DNA of 64,000 nt, taken from the IMG/VR virus record IMGVR_UViG_3300028591_000016; one strand, given 5' to 3'. Position 1 is the stretch's first letter. Every line of letters begins with the position of its first letter. The notes under the pieces are model-generated. The model did no database searches, had not been told where the DNA came from, and was given only the letters and a program-made list of their open reading frames with translations. Both the position numbers and the translations under genes were made by a program. This document shows, piece after piece, positions 22,105 through 46,835 of the stretch. This DNA is from an uncultured virus (IMG/VR IMGVR_UViG_3300028591_000016) (lineage: Duplodnaviria; Heunggongvirae; Uroviricota; Caudoviricetes).

Positions 22105-23538
22105 TCAGGCGGATGCTCCCACATTCTTCAGGCGTCCGGAGCTGATGAACTTGTCAGCCCTGAGCTCTGCCCTCATGTGGGTGATGGTGTGCTCCTTGAG
22201 GTCCCTGGTGATTGCAGGGTTCTCGATGGTCCACACCTCAACAGGCGAGGTCATGCACATCCAGACATGCTTGAGGTCCAGAAGGAATGCGTCACCGTAG
22301 ACTGCAGTGTCAACAGTCTTTCCAGTGTAGTTGTAGGTGAGGTTTCCGGACATCATGATCGGGAGGTTCATGTAGGAGCTGAGTGCCATACCGACATCGC
22401 GTCCCTCGTTGGTCTTCATTCCGCCGATGGACATGGTCGTGTACATGGAGTCAACATAGATGTTGTTGGCCTTGCACAGCTGGTTGAGCTTGTTCCACAT
22501 GAGCGGAGACATGACCCACAGCTTGTCAGTGTAGTCACCCTCCCAGTTGGTCAGGCAGTTCATGTACAGATTGTCGAACATTCCGAGAGAAGGCACAGAG
22601 CCCTCTGCGTCCTCGACCTGTGCGTCGTAGTTGTTCCTGACATGGGTGTTGGTTCCGGTCCAAACTCCATTGGAATCGATATCATTATCCGCGAATCCGA
22701 GCTTCCTTCCCTGTCCGCTGTTCATCTGACCCTGGTATCCTCCGGCCATGTCTCCCTCAAGACCTCCCCAGGGGAGGTAGTTGTTGAGGTTGTCTCCGGA
22801 TGCGACCTCAGTACCGCTCGCAAAGATCCTTGCGAGTCCGTTGAGCGAGGTCTCCTGACCCTGATACATGGGCTGGGTCCTCTTGTCCGCCCTGTTCGCG
22901 AAGGCGATGGGCCTGAGGATGGTCTTGTCGGTGAGATCTGCGTAGTTCTTTCCAATCAGGTCGATGTACTGCTTGTAGGAAGCGGTATCATCCTTACCCT
23001 CAAGGGCCTTCAGTCCGAGACCGTAGTCGTAGGGCAGAGGGAGCTCCTTGTAGGGGACCCTGATCATGTCGTAGTCCGTCTTCACAGAGTTGGGAATCTG
23101 TCCATCGGGCACGGTGGCTGCACCGAGTCCCATGAAGGTTCCGTCGGGGTATGCAGTGCTGTCAAATACCCTGGAATTGTTGGGTCCCATGAGGAACTCC
23201 TCTGCGAGTCCGTATGACGCATACTCGGTAACGAGCCTCATTCCCTCCCAGTCGTATGCCCTCTTGGAAAGGCACGAGGAGACCGCTTTAGATGTGAACA
23301 TCGCTGCGGTAACATCCATTCCGAACTTGGGGTTGAAGAAACCTCCGGAGTATCCGGTGTTATTGAGACCGCCGTCAAAGACGGGGGCGCCTGCAGACCT
23401 AGCGAAAGAGCCGTAGAAGGCACCGTAGCCGCCGTCGTAGAAATCATTGATCAGCTGACTGCAACCCTCAGAGGTCGGCTCATAAGTGGTAGTGATCTTT
23501 CCATCACTCCTTCTCTGAAACTGTCCTGTTCCTGCCAT
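22105..23538 (-). CDS. major capsid protein (HK97 fold, archaeal tailed-virus type)
   Basis: Position after protease and scaffold; FNPKFG..V..., LSKRAYDWEGMRLVT, SYMNLPIM, DAFLLDL..V, MRAELRA..F...GRLKN resemble halovirus/magrovirus-like MCPs. Confidence 0.85.
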   Translation of the reverse strand: MAGTGQFQRRSDGKITTTYEPTSEGCSQLINDFYDGGYGAFYGSFARSAGAPVFDGGLNNTGYSGGFFNPKFGMDVTAAMFTSKAVSSCLSKRAYDWEGMRLVTEYASYGLAEEFLMGPNNSRVFDSTAYPDGTFMGLGAATVPDGQIPNSVKTDYDMIRVPYKELPLPYDYGLGLKALEGKDDTASYKQYIDLIGKNYADLTDKTILRPIAFANRADKRTQPMYQGQETSLNGLARIFASGTEVASGDNLNNYLPWGGLEGDMAGGYQGQMNSGQGRKLGFADNDIDSNGVWTGTNTHVRNNYDAQVEDAEGSVPSLGMFDNLYMNCLTNWEGDYTDKLWVMSPLMWNKLNQLCKANNIYVDSMYTTMSIGGMKTNEGRDVGMALSSYMNLPIMMSGNLTYNYTGKTVDTAVYGDAFLLDLKHVWMCMTSPVEVWTIENPAITRDLKEHTITHMRAELRADKFISSGRLKNVGASA

Positions 23539-23589
23539 AGTTGTACACCTTGACTTGACTTTTTATCTATATAGGGATTTAAAAAGGTA

Positions 23590-23607
23590 AGGGCGGGAAA
23601 CCGCCCT
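23590..23607 (-). terminator. stem-loop between scaffold genes and MCP promoter
   Basis: Minus strand AGGGCGG-TTTC-CCGCCCT followed by TACCTTTTT. Confidence 0.6.
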
Positions 23608-23615
23608 AATTGGGG

Positions 23616-23825
23616 TCAGCGGCCCTCCTGACGCTTGGCCATCGCAGAGTCGATGTCGGCCGTGAAGCCGGGGGAAGAGAGTGCCTTCCTTATCTCCTCT
23701 GTGTTGTCCAGCCCCGCGCTTGCACGGTAAGGGGAGTCCTGGTGAAGCACCGGGACCCCCCCCTCCGACTTGCATATCGCGAAGGACTCGTTGAGCGATT
23801 CTATGTGATGTCCGCGAGCGATCAT
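23616..23825 (-). CDS. small scaffold-like protein (69 aa)
   Basis: ATGA-coupled; immediately upstream of MCP; ends ADIDSAMAKRQEGR. Confidence 0.6.
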   Translation of the reverse strand: MIARGHHIESLNESFAICKSEGGVPVLHQDSPYRASAGLDNTEEIRKALSSPGFTADIDSAMAKRQEGR

Positions 23826-26749
23826 GGCTTCTTAGGAGCCTTGATTGCGTCAATCATATTGCCGTACTCCGTGCTCCTATCCTCCTTAGTCGTTGCATTG
23901 TCCAGATTCGTCGTATCATACCCGGCAAGAGCTGCTGCTCTATCTGCGTTCGTAAGCGCGGATGTCAGCTTGTATTTCTTACCCTTGTACGCGTTGCCGT
24001 AGTTGTGGGTTATCATCGAAGCGTCACCCCCAATCGCCTTTGAAGCCCTTGTTCTGGGATCTATGCTTGCGCCGGTCATGATGTTGCTTGCAGCCGAAGT
24101 GATATCCTCAGCATCATTGAGCAACTCCTCAACTGTCTTTTGCGAGGTATCATATCCCTTCATTACATTGGCCTTATACCATTTATCAAGCATATCACTG
24201 AATTCGGGGACGAAACCATAGGGTTTATTGCCCCCGCCTGTGATCAGTCCGCGGATCGGACTGGTGGCGAGGACCACATCCTGGTATCCCGCGCCATCCG
24301 CTCCAAAGATATCAGCCATTTGCGCACTGAGTGCGGCATTGTTCTTGAATGATCCCATGAAGTTCTCCTTAGCCTTATCGATCGCATCGAAATCGAGCTT
24401 GTCTGCGGAGGCTGCCTTCTCCCAAGCGGCAAGTGTGGTATCCATCTTGGATCCCGCAAAGTTAGGGATTGCCCCCTGCAGATGGTTCCTCAGATACGGA
24501 AGACCTGTCTTATTCATAGCGTAGAAGTCATCACCTAACTTGAATGCAGGCGAATAGTATGAGGAGAAGGTACCGGTGAATATATCCTTTGGCATATTCA
24601 GCGACTCACCCTCCGTATACTCCGGAATATATTGGTCCGCCATTATCTTCTGAGGATCATAGGTCTTCCTACCGATCTTGAATGCCTGCGTGGTGGGATC
24701 CATAAGGAACTTCTTCGCCTTGACTAACTGTCTCGCAAACTCATGCTGAAGGTAGGGGTTTGCATCTCCATACATATTGCCCGTGGATGCCATCTGGAGA
24801 GTCGATGGGATGTTGATACCGGTCTTCTCTGACAGTGCCCCCGCAATAAGACGCAGCTTTTCATCTCTCTGAATCTCGTTGAAAAGGTCATCCAGCTTAT
24901 CTCCGTAAGGCATCCAGTCTATCATCCTGGCGGTCGGTTCATATTTTATGAGCTTGTCATACGCATCCAATGCACTATCAAACCCAGCGTCACCGGGGTT
25001 GACACCTATCCGTCTTGCAAAGAGCAGAGGTGCTACATTCCTTAAGATGGTCTCTGAATCGGTTATTGGGTTCGCTCTGGTACCTAACACGCCAGCGGAA
25101 TCCAGCGTTGCATCATCAAGACCGTATGCCTTCAGGAAATTTCTGATATCGTCTCTTGACGCATAGCTCCCCTTATCCATATCATACAGGTCTGCAAGCC
25201 GTGCAAGAATCTGCCACTGTTCCATCTCCTCTCCTCTCTTAGCTGCCTCATTCTGATATGCAAAGAAGTGAGGGATTATGCCCTTGAGGTTATTGACTCT
25301 CGTTTGAGTTGCATCATCTGCTACACCCTTAGCCGCCATCCTGTCCTTATCTGCTGATGCCCTTTGCTTGATCTTCTCCTTTTCGACATCGCCCAGAGAC
25401 AGGACTCTCTCAAAAGGCTCGGTATCGATCGGCTCATAGATCTTGCCTATGTCTATGCCGAATGACTTGAAGAGCGGCTCAGTATACTGTGCGCCTACAT
25501 TATTGTCGCAATATTTGACAATCTCATCGATAACAGGCTCATATGACTTCTCGATAGAGGTAGCGCCACGCTTCTGAAGGGCCCACATCGTCGAAAGGAC
25601 GTCTCCTACACGCATGTTCTTGACCGCATCGAAGGACCCGATCGACTTCTGGATGGTCTGGAACTGATCCCTCGCCATCTCGGTAGCAGACTTGGAAATC
25701 TTGTACCTCTTTCCATCGATTCCGGACTGGGTTCTCATCCTCTCATTCATAAGGTCATCGATGGACTTCTTGATGGGGTTGTCGCAGACCTTGAAGGACT
25801 CGGTGTCGATGTCCTTGTCCTCCGTGAGACCTTTCTCCTTATTATCCGTGATGATATCATCCATCTTTGCCCCGAGGAACAGATTAATCTGGATGTCAGG
25901 TTTCATCTCTTCCTCTGCACTGGCAGAGACGGGGACGGTGGGGTCGTTTGCACCTGGTTCCTCTGCGGCGGCCCCTTCTCCCTCCGCAAAGTTCTCATTT
26001 GCATCGCCTTTGTCACATTTCTCAATCTCGGTGGCCTCGGACCTTGTCAGAGCGTCAAGAAGCACCTCTGGAGATACCTCCTCTTCGCCGACTGCGTCCA
26101 TATCTCCCTCCGTTGCGAGCAGTTCATCTGCAAGAGGGTCACCCTCTCCCTCTCCTGCAAGTGCCTCGACAATTGCTTCCGGAGGGATTTCCTCATCTGG
26201 AACAGGAGCGGCGGCATCTTCTACAGGGTAGTTCTCCTCCACATACTCCTTTATGATGTCTGCAAGCTTCATGATTGCTTTAGGATCGCCTACCTGCACA
26301 AGTGCATCCTGAAGTGCCGCCAGCGTCTCATCTCCTCCGCCCGCGACATTCTCATCCGCGAACAGTCCAGGCATAGGAGGTGCCGCGGGAGGCATAGCGG
26401 CTGGCGCTTCGGGCATCGGGGGCATCGGAGGTTCGGCTCCCATACCCTCATCCATCGGTGCTCCCTCCGGTCCAGGTGGTACGCCCTCACCCTCCATTGG
26501 AGGCATCCCTCCATCCATCGGGGGTGCTCCTCCTGCCTCAGGAGGCATTCCAGGGGGCATTCCTCCGTCCATCGGAGGCGCCGCACCTCCTGCCCCACCC
26601 TCGATCTTCTGTGTAAGCCTTGCCGTATCGGCCTTGACAGAGTTGATCTCTGCCAAAATAGCTTGGAGCATTCCTACAGCAGACGCATCGCCGATATTGG
26701 CACCGTCTGCCTTGGAGAACTGCTCCCACGCAGTATCTTCGTTGGTCAT
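23822..26749 (-). CDS. large scaffold-like or internal head protein (975 aa)
   Basis: Between protease and MCP; Pro/Glu-rich N-terminal third, many hydrophobic-x-K-S sites, globular C-terminal half. Confidence 0.65.
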   Translation of the reverse strand: MTNEDTAWEQFSKADGANIGDASAVGMLQAILAEINSVKADTARLTQKIEGGAGGAAPPMDGGMPPGMPPEAGGAPPMDGGMPPMEGEGVPPGPEGAPMDEGMGAEPPMPPMPEAPAAMPPAAPPMPGLFADENVAGGGDETLAALQDALVQVGDPKAIMKLADIIKEYVEENYPVEDAAAPVPDEEIPPEAIVEALAGEGEGDPLADELLATEGDMDAVGEEEVSPEVLLDALTRSEATEIEKCDKGDANENFAEGEGAAAEEPGANDPTVPVSASAEEEMKPDIQINLFLGAKMDDIITDNKEKGLTEDKDIDTESFKVCDNPIKKSIDDLMNERMRTQSGIDGKRYKISKSATEMARDQFQTIQKSIGSFDAVKNMRVGDVLSTMWALQKRGATSIEKSYEPVIDEIVKYCDNNVGAQYTEPLFKSFGIDIGKIYEPIDTEPFERVLSLGDVEKEKIKQRASADKDRMAAKGVADDATQTRVNNLKGIIPHFFAYQNEAAKRGEEMEQWQILARLADLYDMDKGSYASRDDIRNFLKAYGLDDATLDSAGVLGTRANPITDSETILRNVAPLLFARRIGVNPGDAGFDSALDAYDKLIKYEPTARMIDWMPYGDKLDDLFNEIQRDEKLRLIAGALSEKTGINIPSTLQMASTGNMYGDANPYLQHEFARQLVKAKKFLMDPTTQAFKIGRKTYDPQKIMADQYIPEYTEGESLNMPKDIFTGTFSSYYSPAFKLGDDFYAMNKTGLPYLRNHLQGAIPNFAGSKMDTTLAAWEKAASADKLDFDAIDKAKENFMGSFKNNAALSAQMADIFGADGAGYQDVVLATSPIRGLITGGGNKPYGFVPEFSDMLDKWYKANVMKGYDTSQKTVEELLNDAEDITSAASNIMTGASIDPRTRASKAIGGDASMITHNYGNAYKGKKYKLTSALTNADRAAALAGYDTTNLDNATTKEDRSTEYGNMIDAIKAPKKP

Positions 26750-26807: not shown

Positions 26808-27824
26808 TCAGTTCTTAAGGAAACGATATGCTCCGTCACCCGAATCCTCAATCAACCTATTATAATACAGATTGGTGAAAAGCGGCCTTGGAACGGCTTG
26901 AGTCAGGGACCCATCGTCCTTACAGAACCCGTTGGTATGACAGAACTTGAACACCTTCTCAAGATATTGGGGGCGCCTGCATATCCTTGCCGTACCGGTG
27001 TCTGCATCATAATCCGCACACAGACCATTCTCTACCATCTTACTATGATTACGCTGGAAGGACTCGGTGGACATAGGGACGTGGACCCCATCCGCACGGG
27101 CGTGGCAATCCGTGTATCCTATCGCTTCCAAGGACTTCTTCAGAGAAAGGTACGGGCATGTCGTGATATCTCTATGAATCTGGTAGGAATCTATACCCAG
27201 ATTGAGAACAGACTCGGACTTGGTGATGGATGCCTTGTCGTTGTACCACTGCATGGTACAATAAGGGTTCATAGGATTGCTGCAGATCGAGATCTCCATC
27301 AATTGTGCCACATCCCTGCGGGTATAGCATCCGCGCTCATCACACTGGTACTTCCCAGGTGCGGCCTCTCCTGCAATAGAGAGGTTGTTCATCCCGTTGA
27401 CGAAGTTCTTACGCATGTTGTCATAAACAAGGTCTCCGCCGAAGAGGTTACCATATGCCATGATAGCATCCACTCCGTCATCATTCTTAGCAGGCTTCCA
27501 GTCCCAGATGACCCCTACATTGTAGTTGTGATGGTCATTCTGCACATTTCCGCCGTAATCTATGAATGAATCCATGTGCTCCTTGACAGTGTCCAGATCG
27601 ATGATGTCCTTCGCCTTGTCTATCGAGTCGGCAGAGGCGATTATCTCAAAGCTGAAGGATGATGGGAGCTCACGGCATGCCCTCCACGCCTCTTTCTTAG
27701 CCTCCTTCGCCTCATCCTCGGTCTTAGGGTCTACTTTATTGTATGCGTCCATCCAGACCTTGCAGTCCTCCTCATTTAGGGACGCCAAAACCTGCGTAGG
27801 TAACTCAAAGATGGAATTATACAT
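26808..27824 (-). CDS. prohead protease with N-terminal ChaB-like domain
   Basis: MYNSIFELPTQV...KVWMDAYN...AKKEAWRAC (ChaB); ASADSIDKAKD, NVQNDH, LSIAG, LMEISICSNPMNP (HK97-type protease). Confidence 0.85.
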   Translation of the reverse strand: MYNSIFELPTQVLASLNEEDCKVWMDAYNKVDPKTEDEAKEAKKEAWRACRELPSSFSFEIIASADSIDKAKDIIDLDTVKEHMDSFIDYGGNVQNDHHNYNVGVIWDWKPAKNDDGVDAIMAYGNLFGGDLVYDNMRKNFVNGMNNLSIAGEAAPGKYQCDERGCYTRRDVAQLMEISICSNPMNPYCTMQWYNDKASITKSESVLNLGIDSYQIHRDITTCPYLSLKKSLEAIGYTDCHARADGVHVPMSTESFQRNHSKMVENGLCADYDADTGTARICRRPQYLEKVFKFCHTNGFCKDDGSLTQAVPRPLFTNLYYNRLIEDSGDGAYRFLKN

Positions 27825-28257: not shown

Positions 28258-28628
28258 GCCTTATACTCCCTGACCTCGATAATGTCCTTTGCTTTCCCCC
28301 TATAGAGGGGTTGAATCTTCTTATCCGCGAGGATATTCTGTACGTATTCCCTCACGACCTCGTTTGCCAGCTCCCTGGTCACTTCCTCCCAGTCTAAGCC
28401 GATGCCCGCCTTGGAATCGATCACGATGTTGATCTTCTCGTCAGTCAGCGAGGTCTCGCAGGCGTCATTGAAGTCCCACCCTGTGCGATACCGCAGATTG
28501 TGCTCATTTCCATCCAATCTGTCCTGATTCAGCTTCACTTCTGCCCTATTGGATCCGTTTGCGATTATCGCTTTCTCGATCTTTGACATATTGGTGATCT
28601 TCAGCTCAAATCCGGACTCGTCGGTCAT
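28254..28628 (-). CDS. hypothetical protein in head operon
   Basis: ATGA-coupled to portal. Confidence 0.7.
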   Translation of the reverse strand: MTDESGFELKITNMSKIEKAIIANGSNRAEVKLNQDRLDGNEHNLRYRTGWDFNDACETSLTDEKINIVIDSKAGIGLDWEEVTRELANEVVREYVQNILADKKIQPLYRGKAKDIIEVREYKA

Positions 28629-30427
28629 GCCGCCATCTCCCTCATGGAGTCCTCGACCTCATCCTTGGATGCGTCCACGTCTGGGTCATCCCTTCTGGCA
28701 GTTCCTTTCTCGGGCGGACCTTCTGACCCGTCCCCGGGCATCCTTCCCATCGCCTCGGCCTGCTGCTGCATCATCATCTGCTGCATCTGCATCCTGCGGT
28801 CGACCTGCTGGACGGGCTCTCTGGAGTAGTAGAACTCTCCGTCCACATACTCCGCTTCATAACCGCCCTGGATCATCTTCAGCATCTCATCGATCTTGTC
28901 CATCCTCTTCTTGGCATCGGCCATCGCCTTGGTAGGCCTGTCAAGACGGAGATCCCAGTCAGTGATCTTCCCGGCCCACCATGACACGATCCAGTCACAT
29001 GCCCTGTCGATACAGGACATGGGGTGCATCAGATAACGGTCATAGACCGTGATCTGCTGACTCTCGTTGTTCATACCGCCCGAGGCCTCGACATCGCCTG
29101 CGAACAGGTTGGGTACTCCGATGTGCGCACAGAGCCTGTTACGGATATCGTCCTTGGATGCGAGCATATCCGATGTAGCATCGGACATCAGGTCGAGTAC
29201 CTGGGCGCGCATCTCTGCAACCCCTTGCAGTTGCGGAGGTGTGCATACAATCGGGATAGAATTGTCATTGGTCGCAAGGGTGTCCGTGATACCTCTTGCC
29301 ACCTCAATGGCGTCCTCATCATTGAATCCGGGAAGGATGACGATCTTACGGACATATCCGAACTTCCTCTTCTTCAGTTCCGACTTCTCGATGAAGTGCC
29401 AAGCCTGCAGGTCATCCTCTATGTCATACCATATCGGCATACCGTAGGTGAGTGCGGGTCTGAACCAATGGTCCTGATAGATCTCATGCTGCATGTAATA
29501 CCAGGACTGCCCGCTTGCACCGAGATTGTCTCCGACCTTATACGCTGCAGGGTATATCTCGATACCCTTCTCGGTCAGCTGGTTGATCTTGTCGATGTCG
29601 TCTGAAATGCTATACGGCGTATGCCTGTCTGCCAGAATGAATCCGTATTCACGACCGGGCGTACCCGAATCATCAAAGAGCTGCTGGACCTTGATGGGAT
29701 CCAGGGAGATGAACTCGACAGGGAACACCTCTTCCTCCTTCTTCCCCTCACCCAGGTCGATGGTGTGTATCTTTCCTGTCAACGGGTCGAAGATATCCCT
29801 CGCGATACAGAGCAGATACCCCTGATTGCAGAGATATTGCATCTCTGCATATGACCTTATGACCTCTTTCAGTGTCTGTCCGCTGTCATTCGCTTCATCA
29901 AGGAAGGATTTGCCATTCGGTCTCTTAAAATACTCCAGCTGGCTCTTATCCGGACGCCTTAACTCGGTCGACCCGCACTCTGGACATACACTTGTCATTG
30001 TACGCGTCTCATACCCGCATTTCGTGCATTTCTTAGCAAATTTCGGCTCGAATTTGAGGTCATAACGCAAAAGCTCAGTGACTGAACGGGAGATAAGTGT
30101 AGAAAGTATCGATACTTCCTGACGATACTGGTACATTCTTGCATACATGAACCACCAGTTATTCGTCTTGGTCACGCGGAAGTTTATATCGGTCGGTCTC
30201 TCCGTATTTCCTACCGCAAATCTGGAGGCGTGCGTCTGCGCATCCGCAGGGGGAATTTCCTCGGGATATGAATCGTAATATGTCCGCATAAGCGGGTCTA
30301 AACCTTTAGGAGTGGCTGAAAATACCTTTGCGGTTGTCTGAATCGGCCTCCCGATGAGGGGTGGAAGCGTTACTGATGGCATGTGATCACCGTTTATATA
30401 GTCCTGACTTTTTTTATATTTACTCAT
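28625..30427 (-). CDS. portal protein with Zn-ribbon insertion
   Basis: Follows TerL; YGMP, IRNRLCAHIGVPNLFAGDVEASGGMNNESQQITV; CTKC...CPEC insertion. Confidence 0.85.
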   Translation of the reverse strand: MSKYKKSQDYINGDHMPSVTLPPLIGRPIQTTAKVFSATPKGLDPLMRTYYDSYPEEIPPADAQTHASRFAVGNTERPTDINFRVTKTNNWWFMYARMYQYRQEVSILSTLISRSVTELLRYDLKFEPKFAKKCTKCGYETRTMTSVCPECGSTELRRPDKSQLEYFKRPNGKSFLDEANDSGQTLKEVIRSYAEMQYLCNQGYLLCIARDIFDPLTGKIHTIDLGEGKKEEEVFPVEFISLDPIKVQQLFDDSGTPGREYGFILADRHTPYSISDDIDKINQLTEKGIEIYPAAYKVGDNLGASGQSWYYMQHEIYQDHWFRPALTYGMPIWYDIEDDLQAWHFIEKSELKKRKFGYVRKIVILPGFNDEDAIEVARGITDTLATNDNSIPIVCTPPQLQGVAEMRAQVLDLMSDATSDMLASKDDIRNRLCAHIGVPNLFAGDVEASGGMNNESQQITVYDRYLMHPMSCIDRACDWIVSWWAGKITDWDLRLDRPTKAMADAKKRMDKIDEMLKMIQGGYEAEYVDGEFYYSREPVQQVDRRMQMQQMMMQQQAEAMGRMPGDGSEGPPEKGTARRDDPDVDASKDEVEDSMREMAA

Positions 30428-31838
30428 GGGTCGCAAATACCCTGCGACACCTGTACTCTGATGATACGCTTGTATCGATTGCTGCTACAAGCCTTCCTTT
30501 AGGTATCTCATCCATACCTTTAGCGACCGCGACACGGCCTTTGCCCGCCCTGAGGAACCGGTCCGTACCATAATGCAACGCATCCATCAGGTGGTCGTGC
30601 TCCTTCTCGGGCTTCCCTGTGAACTGTCCATCCTTATCGATTTCCCAGGAATATGAGGAGAATTCCATTATGTGATACTGGCACTTTGGATGAACGTGGA
30701 TATTGTAGGTCTGGATCCTCTGAATCGCATTCACAACCGAGTCCTTTCCCTTTAGGGCCGCCTCGAGATTGGGCAGCGCATACCTCTTGTAATTGCCGCC
30801 CTCATTCACGATCAATCCGTTCCTCAACTCGTAGATGGACTTGGGCTCTGCACAATCCGCAACGATACGGTCGAAGGCATACCCCATCTCCGTGATCTTC
30901 TTTGCTATATCTGCGTTGGTCATGCCCTTCTGATACATCTCATCTATGATCCACATCTCATGGTTCTTCACATCCACATATGCAACGGATAACGCATTAT
31001 ATGAGACGGAATACCCGAAATCCAGTCCCACTGCCTTCGCAATCCCCGGGCGATGAGCAATCTCTTCTGGATTGAAACTCTCTACCGTCCAATTCTCATA
31101 GATTTGACCCTGCGATGACCCCCATTCTCCATGTACGATGACCTCTGCCGCCTTGGGGTTGTATATCTCCAGATTGCGGTAATATTTTTTATCGTCATCC
31201 GTAAAAGCAGGGTTATCCAGATATGTCGTCGTAAACGCCAGCGTATCCTCCCTTTCCTGATCGAAGAACTGCTCCTTCAGCCAATGGAACTTATGCCAGG
31301 GGTTGAAAGAGAAGAAGAACTTCTTCTTCAGCCCGGTTTCAGGGGGAATTGCACGGATGGATGCCTGTACTTTGGTGATTGCGCCGAAATCGGTGATCTC
31401 AAAGGCCTCCTCGAACCACACCCAACAGAAATAACAGTTGGGAGGCGCACGCAAGGACGCCAATTTCAACGGATCATCCAATCCTCTGAATATAATAGTC
31501 TGCCCGGTCGGTTTATATGTGAACTGCATGGGCTGCATGGTGCAGTTCCACTTATCCAGCACCTCCAGGTCATATAACGCGTTCTTGATGTCCTGATAAC
31601 ATGACCCAGATATGGTATCGAAGATCTTCCTTATGACCACCGCAGAGGAGTGGGGTTGTTGCATGATATGCACAACAAGCCATAATGCCACAAAATAGGA
31701 TTTCCCGCTACCCTTCGATCCTTTGATGACAACATTCTCTTTATTCGTGTACCAAGGAAGAAGATATGCGTGTGATAGGGCAACCTTTGGGTCAAATATC
31801 TTCTTTCCGTCCTTGGTCACCACGAATTTAATTGCCAT
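30420..31838 (-). CDS. terL: terminase large subunit (PBSX-like)
   Basis: Walker A KGSKGSGKS, Walker B WVWFEEA, FNP, RNase H GLDFGY, ADCAEPKSI, HDHLMDALHY. Confidence 0.95.
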   Translation of the reverse strand: MAIKFVVTKDGKKIFDPKVALSHAYLLPWYTNKENVVIKGSKGSGKSYFVALWLVVHIMQQPHSSAVVIRKIFDTISGSCYQDIKNALYDLEVLDKWNCTMQPMQFTYKPTGQTIIFRGLDDPLKLASLRAPPNCYFCWVWFEEAFEITDFGAITKVQASIRAIPPETGLKKKFFFSFNPWHKFHWLKEQFFDQEREDTLAFTTTYLDNPAFTDDDKKYYRNLEIYNPKAAEVIVHGEWGSSQGQIYENWTVESFNPEEIAHRPGIAKAVGLDFGYSVSYNALSVAYVDVKNHEMWIIDEMYQKGMTNADIAKKITEMGYAFDRIVADCAEPKSIYELRNGLIVNEGGNYKRYALPNLEAALKGKDSVVNAIQRIQTYNIHVHPKCQYHIMEFSSYSWEIDKDGQFTGKPEKEHDHLMDALHYGTDRFLRAGKGRVAVAKGMDEIPKGRLVAAIDTSVSSEYRCRRVFATHE

Positions 31839-35700: not shown

Positions 35701-37899
35701 GAAAACGTCGAGCAAATACTCCGGAGGGTATTCTGATAGGAGATGGCCCTCTCTGAGGAAGCCCATCGTCCTCAATAAGTCAGCATCCGCATCGGTTATT
35801 GTCTCGGTGTCCTTCAAACGTTTCAGCATGTCCTGGACATCATCGTTCATCCAGCTCCACTGGCCTTTTTTCCTGTCTATCGCATTGATGTCTTCCGTAT
35901 CCCACTCCGAAAAATTCTCTTTATTATACTTCTTCCCCCAGATATCCTTAATCACCTCTTCTCCATTCTCATCAACATCCTTTATGTGATACCTTGCATT
36001 ATCTGTGGGGGCGCGATGAATCGCATAGAGCATCATATCCCACAAAGAAGGGGTCCTTCCTGCATACTTCTTGTTAACAGTGTTGTACCCACTTACGATA
36101 TCATCTAACTCTCCAGTCAAACTATTCACAAGGTTCCTCAGATACAGTCCTTTTTGCGACTTGGGGAGATTTTCAACATCCTCTTCTGATGCCAATCCGT
36201 ATTTCCTTGCTAAATCGGCACGCGGCATGAAGTAGTCCACAATCGAATTATCATCGCCTTTATCCAATTGAAGGATCTTCATATACATCTTTGCGGCTTC
36301 ACTTGAGCCTAATATCTGGGATAGGATTACCTCTGGGGACAGGGAAAGTCCTGTCTTCTTCAAAAATGCGTTGTCCTTATCATCAATGGCAAGCGCACCC
36401 GCACCCATACTTTGCTCAATAGCGTCTGCAATACGACTGAGCCTGTTTCCATATGCCGAAAGAATAGGCGAATTTCCCTGCTCTCCCTTCGCGGTATAAT
36501 ATGCTGCTTTATCCCTTATCGCGTTCAGATATGCATTGTTCTGTATCGACAGGATCTTCTCGGCCTCTTCTGGGGGCAATCCTCCTACCCCAGACGCGCC
36601 CTGGGCACCGCCAATAGGGGTGACCAGCCTTCTTATCTTATTGTAATTGGATGCTGCACGTCCCAGGTCTTTTACAGACACAGGGGCAGTTCCCTCGGAC
36701 CCCATCAGATCTGAGGTGACGAGTCTTTTTATCGATGTACCCAGACTCAAGTCCCCCATCGAACCTGTGAGTGCAGCCGTAAGAACGGCCTCAAGGTCCG
36801 TCGGGTTGGTAATGGTCTCCATCGCCGAGGTTACCGGTGCATATTTGAACAGGGTCTCTATCGCCCGTTGCTCCTTACGGTTTTTCTCGGCCTCCCCTTT
36901 TGCAAATGCCTTCTTCCCTGCTTTTGTGTGCAATTTCAATTTTTTTAAGAATCTTTCCGCAGAGATGTTGCCCTTCATTGCTTCATTCTGCATCTGCATG
37001 ATCAATAATGCACGGGTCAATGGCACACGGAATTGCTTTGCCCTCTCTGCAGGATCATAACCATGCGCCTTCATTGCAGCATTGAACCAATTTGTAAAGA
37101 TCTGCCTTCCATCCGCATTGTATGTATATTTCGGTGCCTCCCCCTCTTTGGTCGTCTCATATGGCACCCTGTATTGGATATTTCCTTCTGGGTCTTTCAC
37201 TTCTGTGGCCAACTGCAACGCAGCTGGGTATTCGGGGAGAAGGCTCCAATCCGCACCCTTCACCTCTGCATTATCCGCCAAGCCCATTGCGGCAAGCAAT
37301 GCAAGTGAAAAGGACCTCTGATACCCCTCCGAATAATTGGCTCCGTCCTCATACTTTTGAAGATTCTTCACTACATTTGGGATATAAGGAAGGGGTACAC
37401 CATATGACCTGGAATTCACACCGGGACCGCGGGGATCATAACTCGATCCGATCCCCGTATTGCTCGGACCCCATCCCGCATCAAAGTCAGTCCTTCTCAC
37501 TTCCGGAACAATCGCAGAATCCCTCTCGTTGAGCAGGTCATCCATCCCTACCTGATCCATATACCTGTTCAATGTGGAATAGTTAGACCTTCCGCCCAGG
37601 CCCAGATTGATGCCTTCCCCCGAATCGGGATCATAGCCTTCCCCGACCAGCTCCGGGAAAGTGTCCTCCTCACCTTCCTCCGGATCTGCATCATAATCTA
37701 CAAAAGACAGTCTTCCTACAGGCTCTCCCTTCGCAGCCTTCTCATCACGAGCCTTCCATTCCGCCATATGGCTCTTGATTTCCTCTTGTTTCCTATCCAG
37801 CTCCTGGATTTCGGCTGCCTTCTTTGCATTATGCATGGTCAGGTCGTCGGCACCTTTCGCCTTCTTCTTTCTGATAAAAGGCTCATATTGTATAGTCAT
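32794..37899 (-). CDS. giant putative internal virion or ejection protein (1701 aa)
   Basis: True start MTIQYEPF ~25 nt after TTTTTATA box; the track's longer start overlaps another gene; no recognisable domain. Confidence 0.75.
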   Translation of the reverse strand: MTIQYEPFIRKKKAKGADDLTMHNAKKAAEIQELDRKQEEIKSHMAEWKARDEKAAKGEPVGRLSFVDYDADPEEGEEDTFPELVGEGYDPDSGEGINLGLGGRSNYSTLNRYMDQVGMDDLLNERDSAIVPEVRRTDFDAGWGPSNTGIGSSYDPRGPGVNSRSYGVPLPYIPNVVKNLQKYEDGANYSEGYQRSFSLALLAAMGLADNAEVKGADWSLLPEYPAALQLATEVKDPEGNIQYRVPYETTKEGEAPKYTYNADGRQIFTNWFNAAMKAHGYDPAERAKQFRVPLTRALLIMQMQNEAMKGNISAERFLKKLKLHTKAGKKAFAKGEAEKNRKEQRAIETLFKYAPVTSAMETITNPTDLEAVLTAALTGSMGDLSLGTSIKRLVTSDLMGSEGTAPVSVKDLGRAASNYNKIRRLVTPIGGAQGASGVGGLPPEEAEKILSIQNNAYLNAIRDKAAYYTAKGEQGNSPILSAYGNRLSRIADAIEQSMGAGALAIDDKDNAFLKKTGLSLSPEVILSQILGSSEAAKMYMKILQLDKGDDNSIVDYFMPRADLARKYGLASEEDVENLPKSQKGLYLRNLVNSLTGELDDIVSGYNTVNKKYAGRTPSLWDMMLYAIHRAPTDNARYHIKDVDENGEEVIKDIWGKKYNKENFSEWDTEDINAIDRKKGQWSWMNDDVQDMLKRLKDTETITDADADLLRTMGFLREGHLLSEYPPEYLLDVFQRYRGSKKMDATEDSIKKNMANAALLAKFDDIITAMRDGDLDSTGVNIDKMEALARSFAQTLASDGSNPILLGKPREMQKSRAQQMKDFVERYLGDDSYREIGLKNFEDKTVDDLKTNKYDIFRFLDGDESSMTRPQTYANNIQYTEKILANEAAIAEKKRKISELKYLRNRRDVDQEDFMDYSRQIKDLEDEIDDLKGDNKKYEPKLTYGDSAVSLDQNNSEVDEDNVTEKSDVIDKKMDTDNENREENDHYLVEKERYNNLLADFDPENVRKNLILALAKDKLMRGAENGANADMDDDTKLLVDRYLRKWPELNREIGSKWLRYNSGEDRLALEPYNLMDEDLYTDDATDDLLGTLGSNAEDIIYSQFPYYRPVDDKELNFARNVLGMPIPEKDRLSLSDRVAQEEAQWERDEKAAEDRAHYAYDWKALPKEWANNGEDQGDMIANAGDLLKNYIGLYYESIDAQKQGKLPEFYEKLRNEFGTDSRKWREFSAMGRAMEMVRLHNKKKMKGWGPVDIDSLDTNFDVKIPPLHVPLAGEKEGFSQKAVDKPLKDKRRADKLALFDEGLTIDKLADLLNDWRINTSTDAYLRRKKVSEEGAKAAEATAIADAFFPDGSGLIPLPTNEGGKGIDKYDITRLDKDQIAHILSRIISSPEFKADNSRRTMRYTKRRKLSEKNAKRNEGKPIEEQAITPRAGDTREDVLFGLNPSSTQEEIDAVATKLADMIARKQGLSDSMTTFKPMVDEEGNPIRDDAGEVRMESTPDVLMSMPTLNMKETSGDYDLSWLNKKQIADAVKLIINNGRAKGLPIIPGMRIDEQSSMEDIEEYAAKLAEMYEASGGVGVPNHQIRIPILDETTGKPTLDETTGSPITHDIDTSTLPVVPNKYGWPVIRVPLLDDKTGEPVIDEATGLPKTLLSQHVRRQKRKDAEVMGPKRTLRERVGYFYRSADFDESEWDIDKKIEDRQA

Positions 37900-39227: not shown

Positions 39228-39258
39228 GCAATTAAAATATGGATTTATAAAGAATGGG

Positions 39259-39354
39259 TCAAAGATCGAAATAACCGCCTAGCGCAAGAACGATTGCGCC
39301 TATGATACCCACTAGGATTTCCATGACCATTACCGGCTCCATCGTATCACTCAT
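39259..39354 (-). CDS. 31-aa single-TM peptide, not in ORF track
   Basis: MSDTMEPVMVMEILVGIIGAIVLALGGYFDL; ATTAATAT box upstream. Confidence 0.5.
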   Translation of the reverse strand: MSDTMEPVMVMEILVGIIGAIVLALGGYFDL

Positions 39355-39436
39355 CTATCGATTTTCTTATGAGATATTAATGCTTTGGCCGAAACTCTGC
39401 CCTTAACTTATATACTCACACCTCTTTTCTCACAAT

Positions 39437-39976
39437 ATGTTTGACATTAACGCAAGGATGGAACAGTGGTCTGCCGCCAATCGCGTACATTCCACTGAAG
39501 AACTGACAAAATCACTCCAACAGCCCTCCGAGCCGACCGCAACGGAGCCTATGACAAGGAGTGCAAGCATCCAAGCTCGCGCCGCACCGTTCCGTAAGTC
39601 GAAAGGGCCTGTTTTTGACATCAACAGCCGTATGGATGCGTGGAACAAGTCCGAGAAGGCCGGCGACACCGCGACCTACCAGAATCTGTCCTCCAGCGAC
39701 CCCTTCAAGAAGGGTCTGGAGGAGCCTTCGGACGCTGTGCAGATGCTTAGCTCCATGCCGCCCGAGCTTGTGATGGATATGGTGGAGATGTGCCTGGAAA
39801 AACTCGGTTCTGCATCCGAAGAGCCTGGACCACAGGATGATTCCCCTGAATCTGAGCCTAGCCCTAAGGATGATGAACCTAAGGACAAGGATGAGTCCAA
39901 GTCTGATGAGAAATCCGAGTCTGATGAGTCGGATAAGCCAGACACAGAGGAAAAGGACGACAAGGATGCTGAGTGA
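39437..39976 (+). CDS. acidic putative internal head protein with FDINxRMxxW repeat
   Basis: FDINARMEQW and FDINSRMDAW; LTKS, MTRS, FRKS, WNKS sites; TTATATA promoter. Confidence 0.7.
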   Translation: MFDINARMEQWSAANRVHSTEELTKSLQQPSEPTATEPMTRSASIQARAAPFRKSKGPVFDINSRMDAWNKSEKAGDTATYQNLSSSDPFKKGLEEPSDAVQMLSSMPPELVMDMVEMCLEKLGSASEEPGPQDDSPESEPSPKDDEPKDKDESKSDEKSESDESDKPDTEEKDDKDAE

Positions 39977-39977: not shown

Positions 39978-40511
39978 ATGACCTGGACATTCCTTGACAG
40001 ATTGGGCGCATGGAAGGATGCGACCCGTGAGCCGGAGAGGACCAGTTCCTTCCTCAGAAAAGCAGAGGTAGAAAAAGAGGAGAAACTCCCCGATAATCCT
40101 ACCACGGACAATACAGTCAATCCAGCGACCGAGGGCGCTCCGGAAATCCCTGTAGAAAGTATGAAACCGACTCCCACTCCCACAGACCACATGATCGAAA
40201 AGACCGAGGTCGAGAAGGGAGATGGTGAAGTAGACCCTCATGATGGATGCGGATGCCCCGTTTCCGCCGCACTCCATAGCATCAAAGAAGAAGCGGAAGC
40301 CGCTGACCTCTACAACAAGCGGGCAAACAAGGTCGATGACCCACATGCCCGCGAGGTCTATCGCGACATTGCAAAGGAGGAGATGGTCCACCTGGGAGAA
40401 GCTTCTCAACTCCTCGCGGAAGCTGACCCAGAGCTTGCCTCCGAAGTCCCCAAGGGGATGGAGGAGGCGAGCGGCTCCAAAGTTGCATTCAAAAGACCGA
40501 AAAGAGAGTGA
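39978..40511 (+). CDS. ferritin-like protein (encapsulin-cargo/rubrerythrin half-domain) with disordered N-terminus
   Basis: SIKEEAEAADLYNKRA...D...REVYRDIAKEEMVHLGEASQLL...DPE: E-x6-Y and EExxH di-iron motifs. Confidence 0.8.
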   Translation: MTWTFLDRLGAWKDATREPERTSSFLRKAEVEKEEKLPDNPTTDNTVNPATEGAPEIPVESMKPTPTPTDHMIEKTEVEKGDGEVDPHDGCGCPVSAALHSIKEEAEAADLYNKRANKVDDPHAREVYRDIAKEEMVHLGEASQLLAEADPELASEVPKGMEEASGSKVAFKRPKRE

Positions 40512-40980: not shown

Positions 40981-41283
40981 ATGACTGAAGACTCTGAGAT
41001 CGAGAAGATCGTCAAATCCGGAATTATGAGCTTTATGAAGGGGGAAAAGATAGAGGAGCCTGTCGACAAGGCAAATGAGGACGAGACCCCCGCCGAGGAA
41101 CCGATTGCTGACGCGCCTGGTGAAGCAAACTCCCCAGAGACTGCGGAGGATATCCCTGCCGAAAAGGAAGAGATTACGCGTGAGGATCTTTTCGAAAGAT
41201 GCACCGGCATGCCCATTGATGAGGCGTCAGAAGACGTGATCATGTCCGCAATCGAGGACGGGCTGACCGCATTGGGGCTTTAA
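40981..41283 (+). CDS. acidic putative internal head protein
   Basis: IVKS, FMKG, VDKA sites; TTTAAATA promoter. Confidence 0.65.
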   Translation: MTEDSEIEKIVKSGIMSFMKGEKIEEPVDKANEDETPAEEPIADAPGEANSPETAEDIPAEKEEITREDLFERCTGMPIDEASEDVIMSAIEDGLTALGL

Positions 41284-42607: not shown

Positions 42608-42609
42608 AC

Positions 42610-43715: not shown

Positions 43716-43760
43716 GCTCCCTCAAACCTTTTTATATATTTATCACCCCATTTGCTATAC

Positions 43761-46700
43761 ATGGCAGATCCGACTGAAGAGCTTACGCCCGTGCTCGTTC
43801 CTTTTGAAAAGGCCGCAACATATAACCAGTTCAAGGCACAGAACAAAGACTACGACTTAGACACGCTTTATAACATGTCAAATGACCCAAATCAACACGA
43901 GCGTACGAGGGGATATGCCAAACAAATGATCCAGGAGATAAAGGACAACGACCAAAAATACGGGGGTCATTTCAAAGGAGTGATCGATAAGGCCGAGAAT
44001 GACTCCAAAATGGCGGAATACTGGAAACAGCATACGGGAGCGGATCATCCTGTTCAAACAACACCCGAACCGGTCAACAGAGTTCCTCAGTCCCAACACC
44101 CTTCCTATTCTGACGGATCTACCTCTAATGCGCCCACAGCAGCGGCTACCTCTACCTCGACCGCAACAAAACAAAAGAAAAAGCATAAGGACTGGAGAGA
44201 CAAGAGGGACTGGAGCGACTCCAGTGTAGATCTGGCCGGAGGAGTTGCGATGGGGGCAAACACTGCAGGATCCATAGCCGGAGGACTTGCAACCGCAGGA
44301 GATGCGACCCGTAAGATGATGCAGGGCGTACTCAACCCCGGCCTTATGGGGCAGGGTGCAGCCGAAGGCATGCTCGGCGCAGTCGACACTATGGTCACAC
44401 CTACTAAAGAGTCCAGAGCCAGACAGAATAATCTGGTAGATGCGGCTCAACTGACTACCAACCGTAAGGAGCTGATGGACCAAATCAAGGCGATCCAAAA
44501 TAACAATGAACTGAAGGCTACGATGGAGGAACAGGCCAAACTAATGTTCCAAAACACACAGTGGTCTTCGATGTATGATAATCCCAATCTCCTACCGAGC
44601 CAATATAAGACCTTCATCAATGATTACCAGAACAATCTCTCCGCACTGGTCCAATATTGGAGAAACCAAGGCATGCCCGAGGAACTGATAAAGGACGTTG
44701 CAAAGGCATACTACTCTCCCTTAGAGATTGCAATGTACAATAATGAGTACACTACCGTCACAGAGCCGACGAATGAAAAGAGGCAAAAGACCGCAGACAA
44801 CGAGGCGGATGTTGCCACAGCCAATGCTGCGGCGATCAATAATGTTGCAACGAACATCCAATCTAATTTCGCACAGATTAAAAATAACCCTAAATTGGGC
44901 TTTGCATCCGGATATCTGGACTGGGCCCTTAAAAACGGATACGCCACTCGCGATATCCCCTCTGGTCAGATAATCCCGAAGGATAAGGATCTATTCATAG
45001 ACGGACAGGGCAACACGATAGACTCCCCCAACTTCAATGCGAATACCGCCAAGGTGAATTATGGCGCGAACGGATCCACCCTCAACGACTTCATCTCCTA
45101 CCTCAAGTCCACCGGTGACCCGAACAACCTTAAATGGGCTGCAAAGCTGGGCGCAGACAAGATGAAATATGACGATGAGGAGAAGAAATTCAGGGAAATG
45201 CCCGTGTCCCAATATTACGAGGACAATTTCAAGCGCAGCATAGGCAGATCCAAACTAAGCAAGAACAATAATGCAAAGAAGGACCTGAGAAAAACCCAAG
45301 CTACCGTAGAGTCAAGGATATTCGAAAGATATGGAGCATCCCTTGGATTAAGTGCGGAACAGGTCAGGTCCCTTGCGAACAATGGCGGACTCGCATCTAC
45401 CTCGATAGATGATTATGACGCTTTGAAAAAGGTACATGGCGCGCTTGTGCAGGATAGGAACTCCAGAAAGGTCCTGGACTCTATTGCAAAGATCAATGAA
45501 AAAATAGGGAACGCTATGAATAATAATCAGGCGGTCCAACTTACCGATGCTGAACGTGAATTATACAGGGAGGAGCTGATCTACCAAAACCTATGTTACA
45601 GGCTTGCAGCCATGGAGAAGATTCGTGAACTGGACAATAATCTATCTTCCTTCGGCAGACGCTTCGATGCGGTCGGTAACAAGCCTGTTGATGAACAGGG
45701 ATACCCGGTCCACCTCTCGCAGATAGATACCCTCCACCGCTTCCGCGATATGGCCTATGCCGAACTGAAGAAGGGCTTGTATGCACTCAATGATGATATG
45801 GATGAGATTTATATGGCAACATATGACCCTGCCCACAGGTCTGCTGGCGGAATGATGGTGAACGGGAATAATATGGCCTTCCAGAAGTTCGGCAATACCC
45901 CCTCCACCTCGCAAGCCTGGCATCTCGCAAATATGGTGGTTACCGACCATAATTTTGCTAAAAAATGGGGCTCACTGGGCGATCCAGCCCTTGCAGGAAC
46001 AGAGGTATGGGGCCCAGGCTATGTAGGCAGCAACCCGGATAGACGTGTCCACTACAGACTTGACAAATTCATGAGTTTCATCAATAATGCCGCAGATATC
46101 TTGGGCGGACCGCATATCACGAATGATAATAACTTTGCAAACCCTACCCTCAGCGAAGAGGGGATGATCAACAAGGCCGGTACCAATCAGATCATCCAAA
46201 AGATGGGCAATATGATGGGCACAGGCCCAGGCAGCGCAAGTAATATCGTCAGCGGATTGTCAACCCCCAAAAATACAACTGGATCTTTTATCGATCCGTA
46301 TGTCATCTCCCGCTATGGTAACGGTGAATTCTTCTCCGATCCGCCCACCTCTCAGGACATAGCCTCGATCAAACAGATGAGAGACTCGCTGGATAACTTA
46401 CATAATGCGACGAATTCTTCCGGTTACCCTGTGTATTCTGATACTCAGTCCGCCGCGATGAAACAATATCGTGCAGAACTTGTTACGAATACCGCCGCCG
46501 CATACATCAGAGACCATATCACCAATGGTATACCCATGCAGCCTGTGATCGATGCATACCGGGCATATACGGGATCCACCGCTACGAACAATAATGTCGT
46601 AAGAGAGATTGAGAGTATCATCAATTCACAACTATTTGCCAGTATAAGCACCGCATTGCGTCTTGGAAAAGAGAATGACCCCACTGTTGAAGGTTACCTC

Positions 46701-46835
46701 GGAAAGAACTATGATGATTACATGGGCGCACCGGGCGTCAATACAGGTGGGACCTCTGTTGGACCTAACCAACTTCGGAGGAATCCACAAAAAGTACTTG
46801 GCCTGATGAACGCGCTATTTGACGTCATGGTCTGA
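43761..46835 (+). CDS. large putative internal virion or ejection protein (1024 aa)
   Basis: Own TTTATATA promoter; N-terminal FEKA site; Gly/Ala-rich segment; Asn-rich. Confidence 0.7.
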   Translation: MADPTEELTPVLVPFEKAATYNQFKAQNKDYDLDTLYNMSNDPNQHERTRGYAKQMIQEIKDNDQKYGGHFKGVIDKAENDSKMAEYWKQHTGADHPVQTTPEPVNRVPQSQHPSYSDGSTSNAPTAAATSTSTATKQKKKHKDWRDKRDWSDSSVDLAGGVAMGANTAGSIAGGLATAGDATRKMMQGVLNPGLMGQGAAEGMLGAVDTMVTPTKESRARQNNLVDAAQLTTNRKELMDQIKAIQNNNELKATMEEQAKLMFQNTQWSSMYDNPNLLPSQYKTFINDYQNNLSALVQYWRNQGMPEELIKDVAKAYYSPLEIAMYNNEYTTVTEPTNEKRQKTADNEADVATANAAAINNVATNIQSNFAQIKNNPKLGFASGYLDWALKNGYATRDIPSGQIIPKDKDLFIDGQGNTIDSPNFNANTAKVNYGANGSTLNDFISYLKSTGDPNNLKWAAKLGADKMKYDDEEKKFREMPVSQYYEDNFKRSIGRSKLSKNNNAKKDLRKTQATVESRIFERYGASLGLSAEQVRSLANNGGLASTSIDDYDALKKVHGALVQDRNSRKVLDSIAKINEKIGNAMNNNQAVQLTDAERELYREELIYQNLCYRLAAMEKIRELDNNLSSFGRRFDAVGNKPVDEQGYPVHLSQIDTLHRFRDMAYAELKKGLYALNDDMDEIYMATYDPAHRSAGGMMVNGNNMAFQKFGNTPSTSQAWHLANMVVTDHNFAKKWGSLGDPALAGTEVWGPGYVGSNPDRRVHYRLDKFMSFINNAADILGGPHITNDNNFANPTLSEEGMINKAGTNQIIQKMGNMMGTGPGSASNIVSGLSTPKNTTGSFIDPYVISRYGNGEFFSDPPTSQDIASIKQMRDSLDNLHNATNSSGYPVYSDTQSAAMKQYRAELVTNTAAAYIRDHITNGIPMQPVIDAYRAYTGSTATNNNVVREIESIINSQLFASISTALRLGKENDPTVEGYLGKNYDDYMGAPGVNTGGTSVGPNQLRRNPQKVLGLMNALFDVMV

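Follow-up and report, generated by a model that had tools for sequence, protein, structure and literature searches.

A candidate capsid-targeting system in an archaeal-type tailed virus: an enriched hydrophobic-x-Lys-Ser motif, a portable terminal tag and an EncFtn-like protein

Head proteases of tailed viruses follow lineage-specific cutting codes, and T4-style tags that load proteins into a head are known as well. The prohead protease of bacteriophage T4 cuts at sites that end in Glu, (L/I)-x-E, and proteases of this fold, in T4 as in herpesviruses, typically combine a hydrophobic P3 residue with a fixed P1 residue. Other systems use a C-terminal targeting peptide on the protease (HK97) or a C-terminal coat-binding helix-turn-helix on the scaffold (P22), and encapsulins are thought to derive from HK97 capsids. 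Foreign proteins, GFP among them, are described as being loaded into the T4 head by its capsid targeting sequence (CTS) (PMC3012670; PMC10052503), and the sections on SPN3US gp245 and phiKZ-type proteases in one of these sources describe many head propeptides with multiple motif copies, a preference for Ser at P1' and shedding of the C-terminal part of the protease by itself (PMC10052503). For encapsulins, the targeting peptide is given as L(F)-x-V(I)-x-x-L(I) with G/S/T spacers (PMC11202242), and ferritin-like protein (Flp) domains fused to a shell-associated protein are reported to occur in Archaea (PMC8346489). A 2026 paper proposes that a swap of scaffold and cargo could turn procapsids into encapsulins and back, and also asks whether viruses encode cargo-like proteins and co-assemble such enzymes in procapsids (PMC13669383). 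Here we analyze the head module and the adjoining genes of the uncultured virus IMGVR_UViG_3300028591_000016, a stretch of 64,000 nt that we call the window and for which an earlier note had proposed that a short cutting motif and a reused, removable helical tag direct several unrelated proteins into the capsid. We find a narrower motif, hydrophobic-x-K-S, enriched in the protease and in scaffold-like proteins, and a tag shared by four unrelated protein families, one of which is EncFtn-like.

The motif was originally described in its loose form, [FILMVY]-x-[KR]-[SAG], and all quoted motif strings are present in the genes named. Compared to the expectation from shuffling, the loose motif was at chance in the major capsid protein (MCP; 2 observed vs 3.0 expected), the protease (3 vs 2.0), the portal (6 vs 3.9), the 1701-aa giant protein (13 vs 14.0) and the 1024-aa protein (8 vs 6.4) as well as in the background sets of early (41 vs 42.8) and late genes (35 vs 33.2). 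It was raised only in the 69-aa (3 vs 0.62) and 975-aa proteins (12 vs 6.7) and in the products of genes 39437 (179 aa; 4 vs 0.92), 39978 (177 aa; 3 vs 0.94) and 40981 (100 aa; 3 vs 0.36), and it was dropped as a marker. In contrast, the sharp form [FILMV]-x-K-S occurs five times in the 975-aa protein, where 0.76 copies are expected, but was at chance in early (4 vs 6.6) and late genes (4 vs 4.7). Relatives of the window were gathered with an alignment of the portal protein, which yielded five viral contigs and 48 metagenome loci, and their pooled counts were set against a composition-based expectation. The sharp motif was found 70 times in 12 scaffold-like proteins (7.9 expected) and 44 times in 15 proteases (6.7 expected), compared to 9 vs 4.2 in 11 MCPs, 17 vs 7.0 in 14 portals, 19 vs 11.8 in ten giant proteins and 4 vs 7.8 in 12 TerL proteins. 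Control motifs remained at chance in the scaffold-like set (reversed motif, 5 vs 7.9; hydrophobic-x-E-S, 10 vs 12.4; non-hydrophobic-x-K-S, 28 vs 29.3). From these counts we regard the enrichment of hydrophobic-x-K-S as real.

The positions of the sites are conserved as well. The gene directly after the protease gene, which in the window encodes the 975-aa protein, contains 3–11 sharp motifs in 12 lineages, where 0.4–1.8 are expected (6–11 in nine of them, three in L028 and L033, five in the window), and the proteins encoded there can hardly be aligned with each other; nine of the 12 have a site within their first 30 residues. The proteases of these lineages contain two to six sharp motifs each, and hydrophobic-x-K-S is present in the linker of all 15 aligned proteases. 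At the candidate propeptide site of the MCP, the pattern hydrophobic-x-[KR]-[SA] is fixed in 12 out of 12 aligned sequences. Conservation did not extend to every site listed originally: the portal motif YKKS is absent from the closest relative, L007, and FEKA of the 1024-aa protein and the sites of the 40981 protein lack comparative support. In distant lineages, a peptide S-[FI]-x-[DE]-[LM]-[MF] recurs, mostly adjoining a site, and the SIDDLM sequence right behind a K-S site of the 975-aa protein belongs to this related, family-wide motif.

The protease encoded in the head module is predicted to have the assemblin/gp21 serine protease fold. Because a sequence-profile search against the PDB gave only a ChaB-like match of the N-terminal part (E 0.27) and Pfam likewise nothing beyond this weak match, we relied on fold comparison. 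In the AlphaFold model (mean predicted local distance difference test, pLDDT, 76), a core of residues 56–181 is followed by a disordered linker (residues 185–219, pLDDT <50), which contains the invariant site, and by a C-terminal domain. The best match of the core was T4 gp21 (Foldseek E 5.9e-3; VIA Z 10.5, rmsd 3.6, 130 of 164 residues), well over the next unrelated entry, and herpesvirus proteases followed with Z values of 6.2–6.6. His98, Ser149, K202 and S203 are invariant among 11 sequences. Residues 1–52 resemble ChaB (PF06150 E 0.0097, under the cut-off; VIA Z 6.8 to 1sg7) and are kept in all 15 aligned proteases. Since the model matches T4 gp21, since a hydrophobic P3 and a fixed P1 residue are typical for this fold, and since SPN3US offers a parallel for Ser at P1' and for C-terminal self-removal, hydrophobic-x-K-S most likely is the site of the prohead protease, with the scissile bond presumably between Lys and Ser (written K↓S below).

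The second element is a helical tag. Scanning the 91 proteins of the window with the strict pattern D-I-[DN]-x-x-[MI]-x-x-[RW] gave four matches where 0.09 are expected, a number reached in none of 2000 shuffles. Two of the matches are C-terminal, in the 69-aa and 1701-aa proteins, and two lie in the 179-aa protein, at its N-end and at residue 61. The tag is an amphipathic helix of approximately ten residues that occurs in two forms, D-I-D-x-x-[M/I/V]-x-x-R-Q (DID tag) and F-D-I-N-x-R-M-x-x-W (W-type tag). Both sites and the tag are kept in four out of four members of the 69-aa family. A homolog of the giant protein, P0042 (1830 aa), ends in an identical FYR↓S, a spacer and then YDIDKEIADRQA (Y-D-I-D-K-E-I-A-D-R-Q-A), and hydrophobic-x-[KR]↓[SA] followed by 12–22 residues with an amphipathic stretch and the stop codon was found at the C-ends of five out of ten giants in addition to P0042. 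Among 14 sequences of the 179-aa family, invariance is essentially confined to the two tags and to F-x-K and P-F in the sites, while the remainder varies. The AlphaFold model of the 179-aa protein is poor (mean pLDDT 64.6); both tags are helical in it and have the highest local confidence, with block means of 87 and 89. A reading of the tag as PCNA-binding peptide (PIP-box), considered against the consensus only, was dropped because spacing and residues differ.

The product of gene 39978, which carries a W-type tag, matched PF22277 with 28.2 bits against a cut-off of 27 (E 1.7e-6), and 25 out of 25 homologs carry a precomputed PF22277 assignment. Its best solved matches are the encapsulated ferritin of Pyrococcus furiosus (5n5e, E 7.8e-8) and the P. 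furiosus 'virus-like particle' (2e0z, E 8.6e-7), which is the encapsulin of this archaeon bearing an EncFtn domain. E105, Y112, E135 and H138 are invariant in 18 sequences and align with Glu32, Tyr39, Glu62 and His65, which are described as the ferroxidase-centre residues of EncFtn (PMC11202242). Judged by its sequence, the 39978 protein is EncFtn-like, a property that was absent from the earlier note. All 25 homologs have at least one tag: 17 have a W-type tag at the N-end (F-L-D-R-I-D-A-W-like, then S-S-F-L-R) and 21 terminate in D-I-D-x-x-[IVM]-x-x-R-Q. Seven short forms (101–121 aa) start with a DID tag directly ahead of the domain, and most of these have DID tags at both ends. We rejected the idea that the DID peptides belong to the ferritin fold, as they lie outside the stretch aligned with 5n5e (chain residues 29–91 of 99) and recur on unrelated proteins. 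Across the viral EncFtn-like family, a near-invariant Cys-x-Cys (G-C-G-C-P; window 40245–40259, plus strand) stands directly ahead of the ferritin-like domain and possibly forms an extra metal site.

As the EncFtn-like copy of the window has an N-terminal W-type tag only, a tag profile built exclusively from EncFtn-like protein ends of other viruses could be used as an out-of-sample test. The profile was run over all 1161 six-frame segments of the window, and its two top scores, 13.4 and 7.5 bits, fell on the C-ends of the 69-aa and 1701-aa proteins, respectively; the best of 20 shuffled decoys reached 6.3 bits. In the clade of the window, represented by the window itself, L007, L008 and isolated proteins, the tag is found on four unrelated families. 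It stands at the C-end in the 69-aa protein and the 1701-aa giant, at the N-end and internally in the acidic 179-aa protein, and at the N-end, the C-end or both in the EncFtn-like protein. Because a profile derived from EncFtn-like proteins alone finds the ends of two unrelated proteins, the tag reads as a module that moves between protein families and termini, and in this respect the original proposal of a recurrent helix acting as portable tag has held up. A connection between EncFtn and the head is also visible outside this clade. In L028, L032 and L033, an EncFtn-like stretch forms the N-terminus of the giant, whose gene in the head operon immediately precedes the terminase genes (BLAST against the window protein 7e-10 and 3e-6; Pfam EncFtn-like or Rubrerythrin matches below threshold, E 8e-5 to 4e-3), and hydrophobic-x-K-S follows within approximately 30–60 residues behind each of these stretches.

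Building on the observed motifs with their enrichment, conservation and modularity, on the protease fold and on the EncFtn homology, we infer a T4-style capsid targeting, in which cleavage, the exact bond, packaging and a receptor for the tag are the deduced parts. We consider this the probable explanation, held with some reserve: the protease would cut hydrophobic-x-K↓S and the portable end-tag would load proteins, including EncFtn-type cargo. The tag would address the 69-aa, 1701-aa, 179-aa and EncFtn-like proteins into the assembling prohead. There, the protease would cut behind hydrophobic-x-Lys (rarely Arg) and ahead of Ser or Ala, and would thereby trim the first ~47 residues of the MCP, free its own C-terminal domain and dismantle the scaffold-like 975-aa protein and several internal proteins. 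The tag may be clipped where a site lies between tag and body, as in the 69-aa protein, at the C-end of the 1701-aa protein, at the N-end of the 179-aa protein and in the long N-terminal extension of EncFtn-like proteins. To this extent the tag can be called removable, as originally proposed, but the EncFtn-like DID tags often lack such a site. The original equation of the helix with a coat-binding element of the scaffold is not supported, and the 69-aa protein is at most a putative scaffold. Two of the tagged proteins, those of genes 39437 and 39978, are indeed encoded outside the head operon behind a TATA-like box of their own.

Several observations weigh against this interpretation. Inside the window alone, the sharp motif is significant in the 975-aa protein only, and the pooled counts of 70 and 44 take homologous positions once per lineage, by which the number of independent events is overstated. 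The regular expressions behind the tag count of 25 out of 25 EncFtn-like homologs were tuned by eye. PF22277 was found in none of the records of five more distant relatives, two of which are complete. The C-terminal (21 of 25) and N-terminal (7 of 25) DID tags of EncFtn-like proteins have no hydrophobic-x-K-S between themselves and the domain and therefore would stay on, like encapsulin peptides, so that removability is not a general property. The variant KSIDDLMNERM of the 975-aa protein, which had been counted as a form of the same helix, reached only 2.5 bits, and the profile of EncFtn-like ends does not join SIDDLM to the DID tag. Genes 39437, 39978 and 40981 are the first of a rightward operon in which the PCNA-like gene is found too, and their products could be non-structural. 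The virus is known from metagenomes alone. Finally, the helices of the 975-aa protein and of the giants' N-ends lie directly behind the scissile bond and would remain on the product, a position that suits recognition by the protease equally well.

The last point leads to the alternative that survives best, although we consider it unlikely: the helices could be docking (exosite) elements that recruit the prohead protease to a nearby hydrophobic-x-K↓S, while packaging is decided otherwise. Consistent with this, an amphipathic helix starts right behind K↓S in the 975-aa protein (SIDDLMNERM at the first site of its cluster), at the giants' N-ends in L007, L008 and P0042 and at many scaffold and giant sites of distant lineages, and the tags lie close to sites in the 69-aa, 179-aa and 1701-aa proteins. 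However, the majority of hydrophobic-x-K-S sites, among them those of the MCP and the protease linker, have no neighbouring helix, and the EncFtn-like DID tags stand at protein ends where no site is nearby.

Slightly less probable still is that the tags are helices for self-association or partner binding unrelated to the capsid, for example in a cytoplasmic complex or with a host factor, and that the plus-strand genes are early or middle genes for non-virion proteins. This alternative would fit the direction of 39437, 39978 and 40981, whose transcription leads away from the head operon, and the Zn-ribbon and PCNA-like genes that come after them. Against it, a DID tag terminates two proteins of the head operon, the 69-aa protein encoded beside the MCP gene and the 1701-aa protein, the tagged proteins also bear the motif that marks scaffold, protease and MCP, and the EncFtn-like domain is fused to a head-operon giant in three lineages. 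A chance recurrence of short, low-information motifs with no common function, which the behavior of the loose motif in the MCP, protease, portal, 1701-aa and 1024-aa proteins and in the early and late sets might suggest, is very improbable and is contradicted for the sharp motif by its enrichment next to controls at chance and its fixed position in MCPs and proteases, and for the helix by the shuffles and the out-of-sample profile; it stands only for the instances in the portal, 1024-aa and 40981 proteins.

Returning to capsid targeting, not all of the originally listed proteins are supported as substrates: the motif is at chance in the portal, in the 1024-aa protein and over most of the 1701-aa protein. 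In the 1024-aa protein, the sharp motif is absent (0 vs 0.98), and neither a tag in the scan, nor a Pfam family, nor a tblastn match in phages was found; the atlas gave a lead scored 0.75 to a viral cluster without family. Its inclusion in the system is not supported. For the 40981 protein no homologs were obtained and the scan of the window for DID and W-type tags found none on it, and we list it as a weak candidate cargo. A complex prediction for MCP and 69-aa protein, run without controls, gave a score of 0.00 and is uninformative in both directions. The alignment of the 975-aa protein with its L007 counterpart covers only the N-terminal ~458 aa. Its C-terminal ~520 aa (window 23822–25400, minus strand) lie behind the last site of the cluster, LFK↓S, and may be a separate cargo domain freed by cleavage.

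The window is a virus genome and contains the head-assembly module of an archaeal-type tailed virus; its gene blocks are given along the 64,000 nt in Table 1. TerL matched Pfam with E 1.8e-44, and a Pfam search with the MCP returned no match of any kind. The only named relative is Caudoviricetes sp. vir335, a complete 83-kb virus assigned to Methanomassiliicoccales, with which the window shares the gene order of MCP, portal, protease and TerL and whose 'major head protein, HK97-like fold' is aligned with the MCP over 99% of its length. TATA-like boxes approximately 25 nt ahead of start codons in the window, together with the PCNA-like gene (phrog_947, E 7e-8), agree with an archaeal host. Close relatives are L007 and L008, with portals 84% and 73% identical, and approximately ten lineages are further off; an MCP-only scan of viral contigs found an identical 10-kb fragment as sole match. 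With the alignment of EncFtn-like proteins, no further loci of the clade were found in viral contigs or genome contigs. Rfam gave no matches over the whole window.

Table 1. Positions of genes, predicted cleavage sites and tags in the window (↓, presumed scissile bond).
Feature	Position (nt)	Strand	Remarks
Plus-strand block	1-21400	+	~50 small genes
Major capsid protein, 477 aa	22105..23538	-	34.7% identity to vir335 head protein
MCP candidate propeptide site FAR↓S	23395-23406	-	residues 45-48
69-aa protein	23616..23825	-	adjoins MCP gene
69-aa C-terminal DID tag ADIDSAMAKRQ	23628-23660	-	
69-aa site IRK↓A	23682-23693	-	
69-aa site ICK↓S	23766-23777	-	
975-aa scaffold-like protein	23822..26749	-	N-terminal site FSK↓A
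975-aa cluster of five hydrophobic-x-K-S	25463-25774	-	residues 326-429
Prohead protease, 338 aa	26808..27824	-	ChaB-like N-terminal domain, core, linker, C-terminal domain
Protease second site LKK↓S	27132-27143	-	
Protease site ITK↓S	27216-27227	-	residues 200-203, in linker behind catalytic core
Portal protein	28625..30436	-	homologous to vir335 portal; YKKS near N-terminus
1701-aa giant protein	32794..37899	-	motif over full length at chance
1701-aa C-terminal DID tag WDIDKKIEDRQ	32800-32832	-	behind FYR↓S
1701-aa C-terminal site FYR↓S	32854-32865	-	
1701-aa N-terminal basic stretch and helix	37831-37875	-	resembles K-K↓S/A-helix at relatives' giant N-ends
Head operon	39227 down to 21501	-	TerL, portal, protease, 975-aa, 69-aa and capsid genes
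Divergent intergenic region	39228..39436		TATA-like boxes ~22-28 nt ahead of start codons at 39227 (-) and 39437 (+), read from sequence
Second plus-strand block	from 39437	+	
179-aa protein	39437..39976	+	tag 1, sites LTK↓S, MTR↓S, FRK↓S, tag 2, PFKK↓G, helical part, acidic tail
179-aa W-type tag 1 FDINARMEQW	39440-39469	+	
179-aa tag 2 FDINSRMDAW	39614-39643	+	
EncFtn-like protein, 177 aa	39978..40511	+	PF22277
EncFtn-like N-terminal W-type tag FLDRLGAW	39990-40013	+	
EncFtn-like site FLRK↓A	40050-40064	+	then linker
Ferritin-like domain	~40281-40469	+	preceded by CxC motif
100-aa acidic protein	40981..41283	+	IVK↓S, FMK↓G, VDK↓A near N-terminus; 3 loose motifs vs 0.36
1024-aa protein	43761..46835	+	FEKA; loose motif 8 vs 6.4; sharp motif 0 vs 0.98
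Late block	from 48746		

Some features of neighbouring genes deserve mention in their own right. Within an apparent gap of ~290 nt before the giant gene lies a small gene of ~75 aa (window 37958–38184, minus strand) that is kept in L007 and L008 with a mean column identity of 83%; after it come a GC hairpin with a T-run and a TATA-like box ~25 nt ahead of the start codon of the giant. A 160-aa protein with C-terminal CxxC...CxxC (window 32279–32761, minus strand) is kept directly upstream of the small-terminase-like gene in every lineage that reaches there. The portal has an inserted four-cysteine, zinc-ribbon-like stretch (CxxC...CxxC) at residues ~137–157, with C137, C140, C151 and C154 invariant in an alignment of four sequences and weak Pfam zinc-ribbon matches. 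The portal open reading frame of L039 (9800–13342) encodes 1180 aa, about twice the usual length, which suggests a fusion with the downstream gene. TerL has 637–862 aa in several relatives (L001, 12055–13968; L003, L005 and L006), compared to 484 aa in the window, and the ends of the extra segment look like those of inteins.

This locus is new in its presumed cutting code, in the family of archaeal viruses concerned, in a portable tag that occurs at both ends of proteins and in the EncFtn-type candidate cargo. For archaeal gut viruses that cannot yet be cultivated, a hydrophobic-x-Lys↓Ser code would predict the mature ends of capsid, protease and scaffold proteins, and a candidate loading tag that is usable from either protein end would be a compact handle for foreign proteins in an archaeal virus capsid. 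The nearest solved relatives of the tagged cargo are the cargo domain of an archaeal encapsulin, and the locus makes the question whether viruses take up cargo-like enzymes into procapsids directly testable. A more far-reaching possibility, which we regard as tentative and rather doubtful, is that the end-tags load a working EncFtn-type ferroxidase, either free and tagged or cut from a giant, into the genome-packaging HK97 capsid, so that the virion or procapsid doubles as an encapsulin-like iron compartment. Such a virus would link tailed viruses with the Flp-fusion encapsulins of Archaea as a living intermediate form, and would be a natural example of the cargo/scaffold switch that is proposed for HK97-fold shells (PMC13669383). 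A literature search, which did not cover the description of vir335, found no link of EncFtn to archaeal viruses or of ferritin-like cargo to virions.

Among the known systems, the terminal elements of HK97 and P22, compared by description only, are similar in that short terminal helices bring a protein inside an HK97-fold procapsid, but each serves one protein and not a set of unrelated cargoes. T4 is closer. In both cases a short peptide common to unrelated proteins adjoins the motif of the head protease, the proteases have the same fold (gp21), and scaffold or core proteins contain the motif in many copies. However, the code of T4 is (L/I)-x-E, whereas it is hydrophobic-x-K↓S here and hydrophobic-x-E-S is at chance, and the CTS of T4 is N-terminal, whereas the tag of this archaeal virus, known from sequence alone, occurs at either end or at both and, in the case of the ferritin, often stands without a site. 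With the giant phages, the system would have in common the head propeptides, the C-terminal self-removal of the protease, motifs in multiple copies, Ser at P1' and large internal or ejection proteins. Proteases of the SPN3US/phiKZ type are described as cutting after Glu, with propeptides that are nearly all N-terminal, and a portable C-terminal tag or ferritin cargo does not figure in the sections of that description dealing with them (PMC10052503).

The likeness to encapsulins lies in the homologous cargo (5n5e, 2e0z) with its invariant ferroxidase residues, in short terminal peptides on the enzyme and in an HK97-fold shell as presumed container. In contrast to encapsulins, the shell is here a true virus capsid, encoded together with portal, TerL and prohead protease in synteny with a complete 83-kb genome, and the MCP itself is without Pfam match. 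The tags follow D-I-D-x-x-[MIV]-x-x-R-Q, and the few that fit the published hydrophobic spacing of encapsulin peptides (F-D-I-D-x-L) have acidic spacers. Moreover, the tags are modelled as helices, and a protease belongs to the system.

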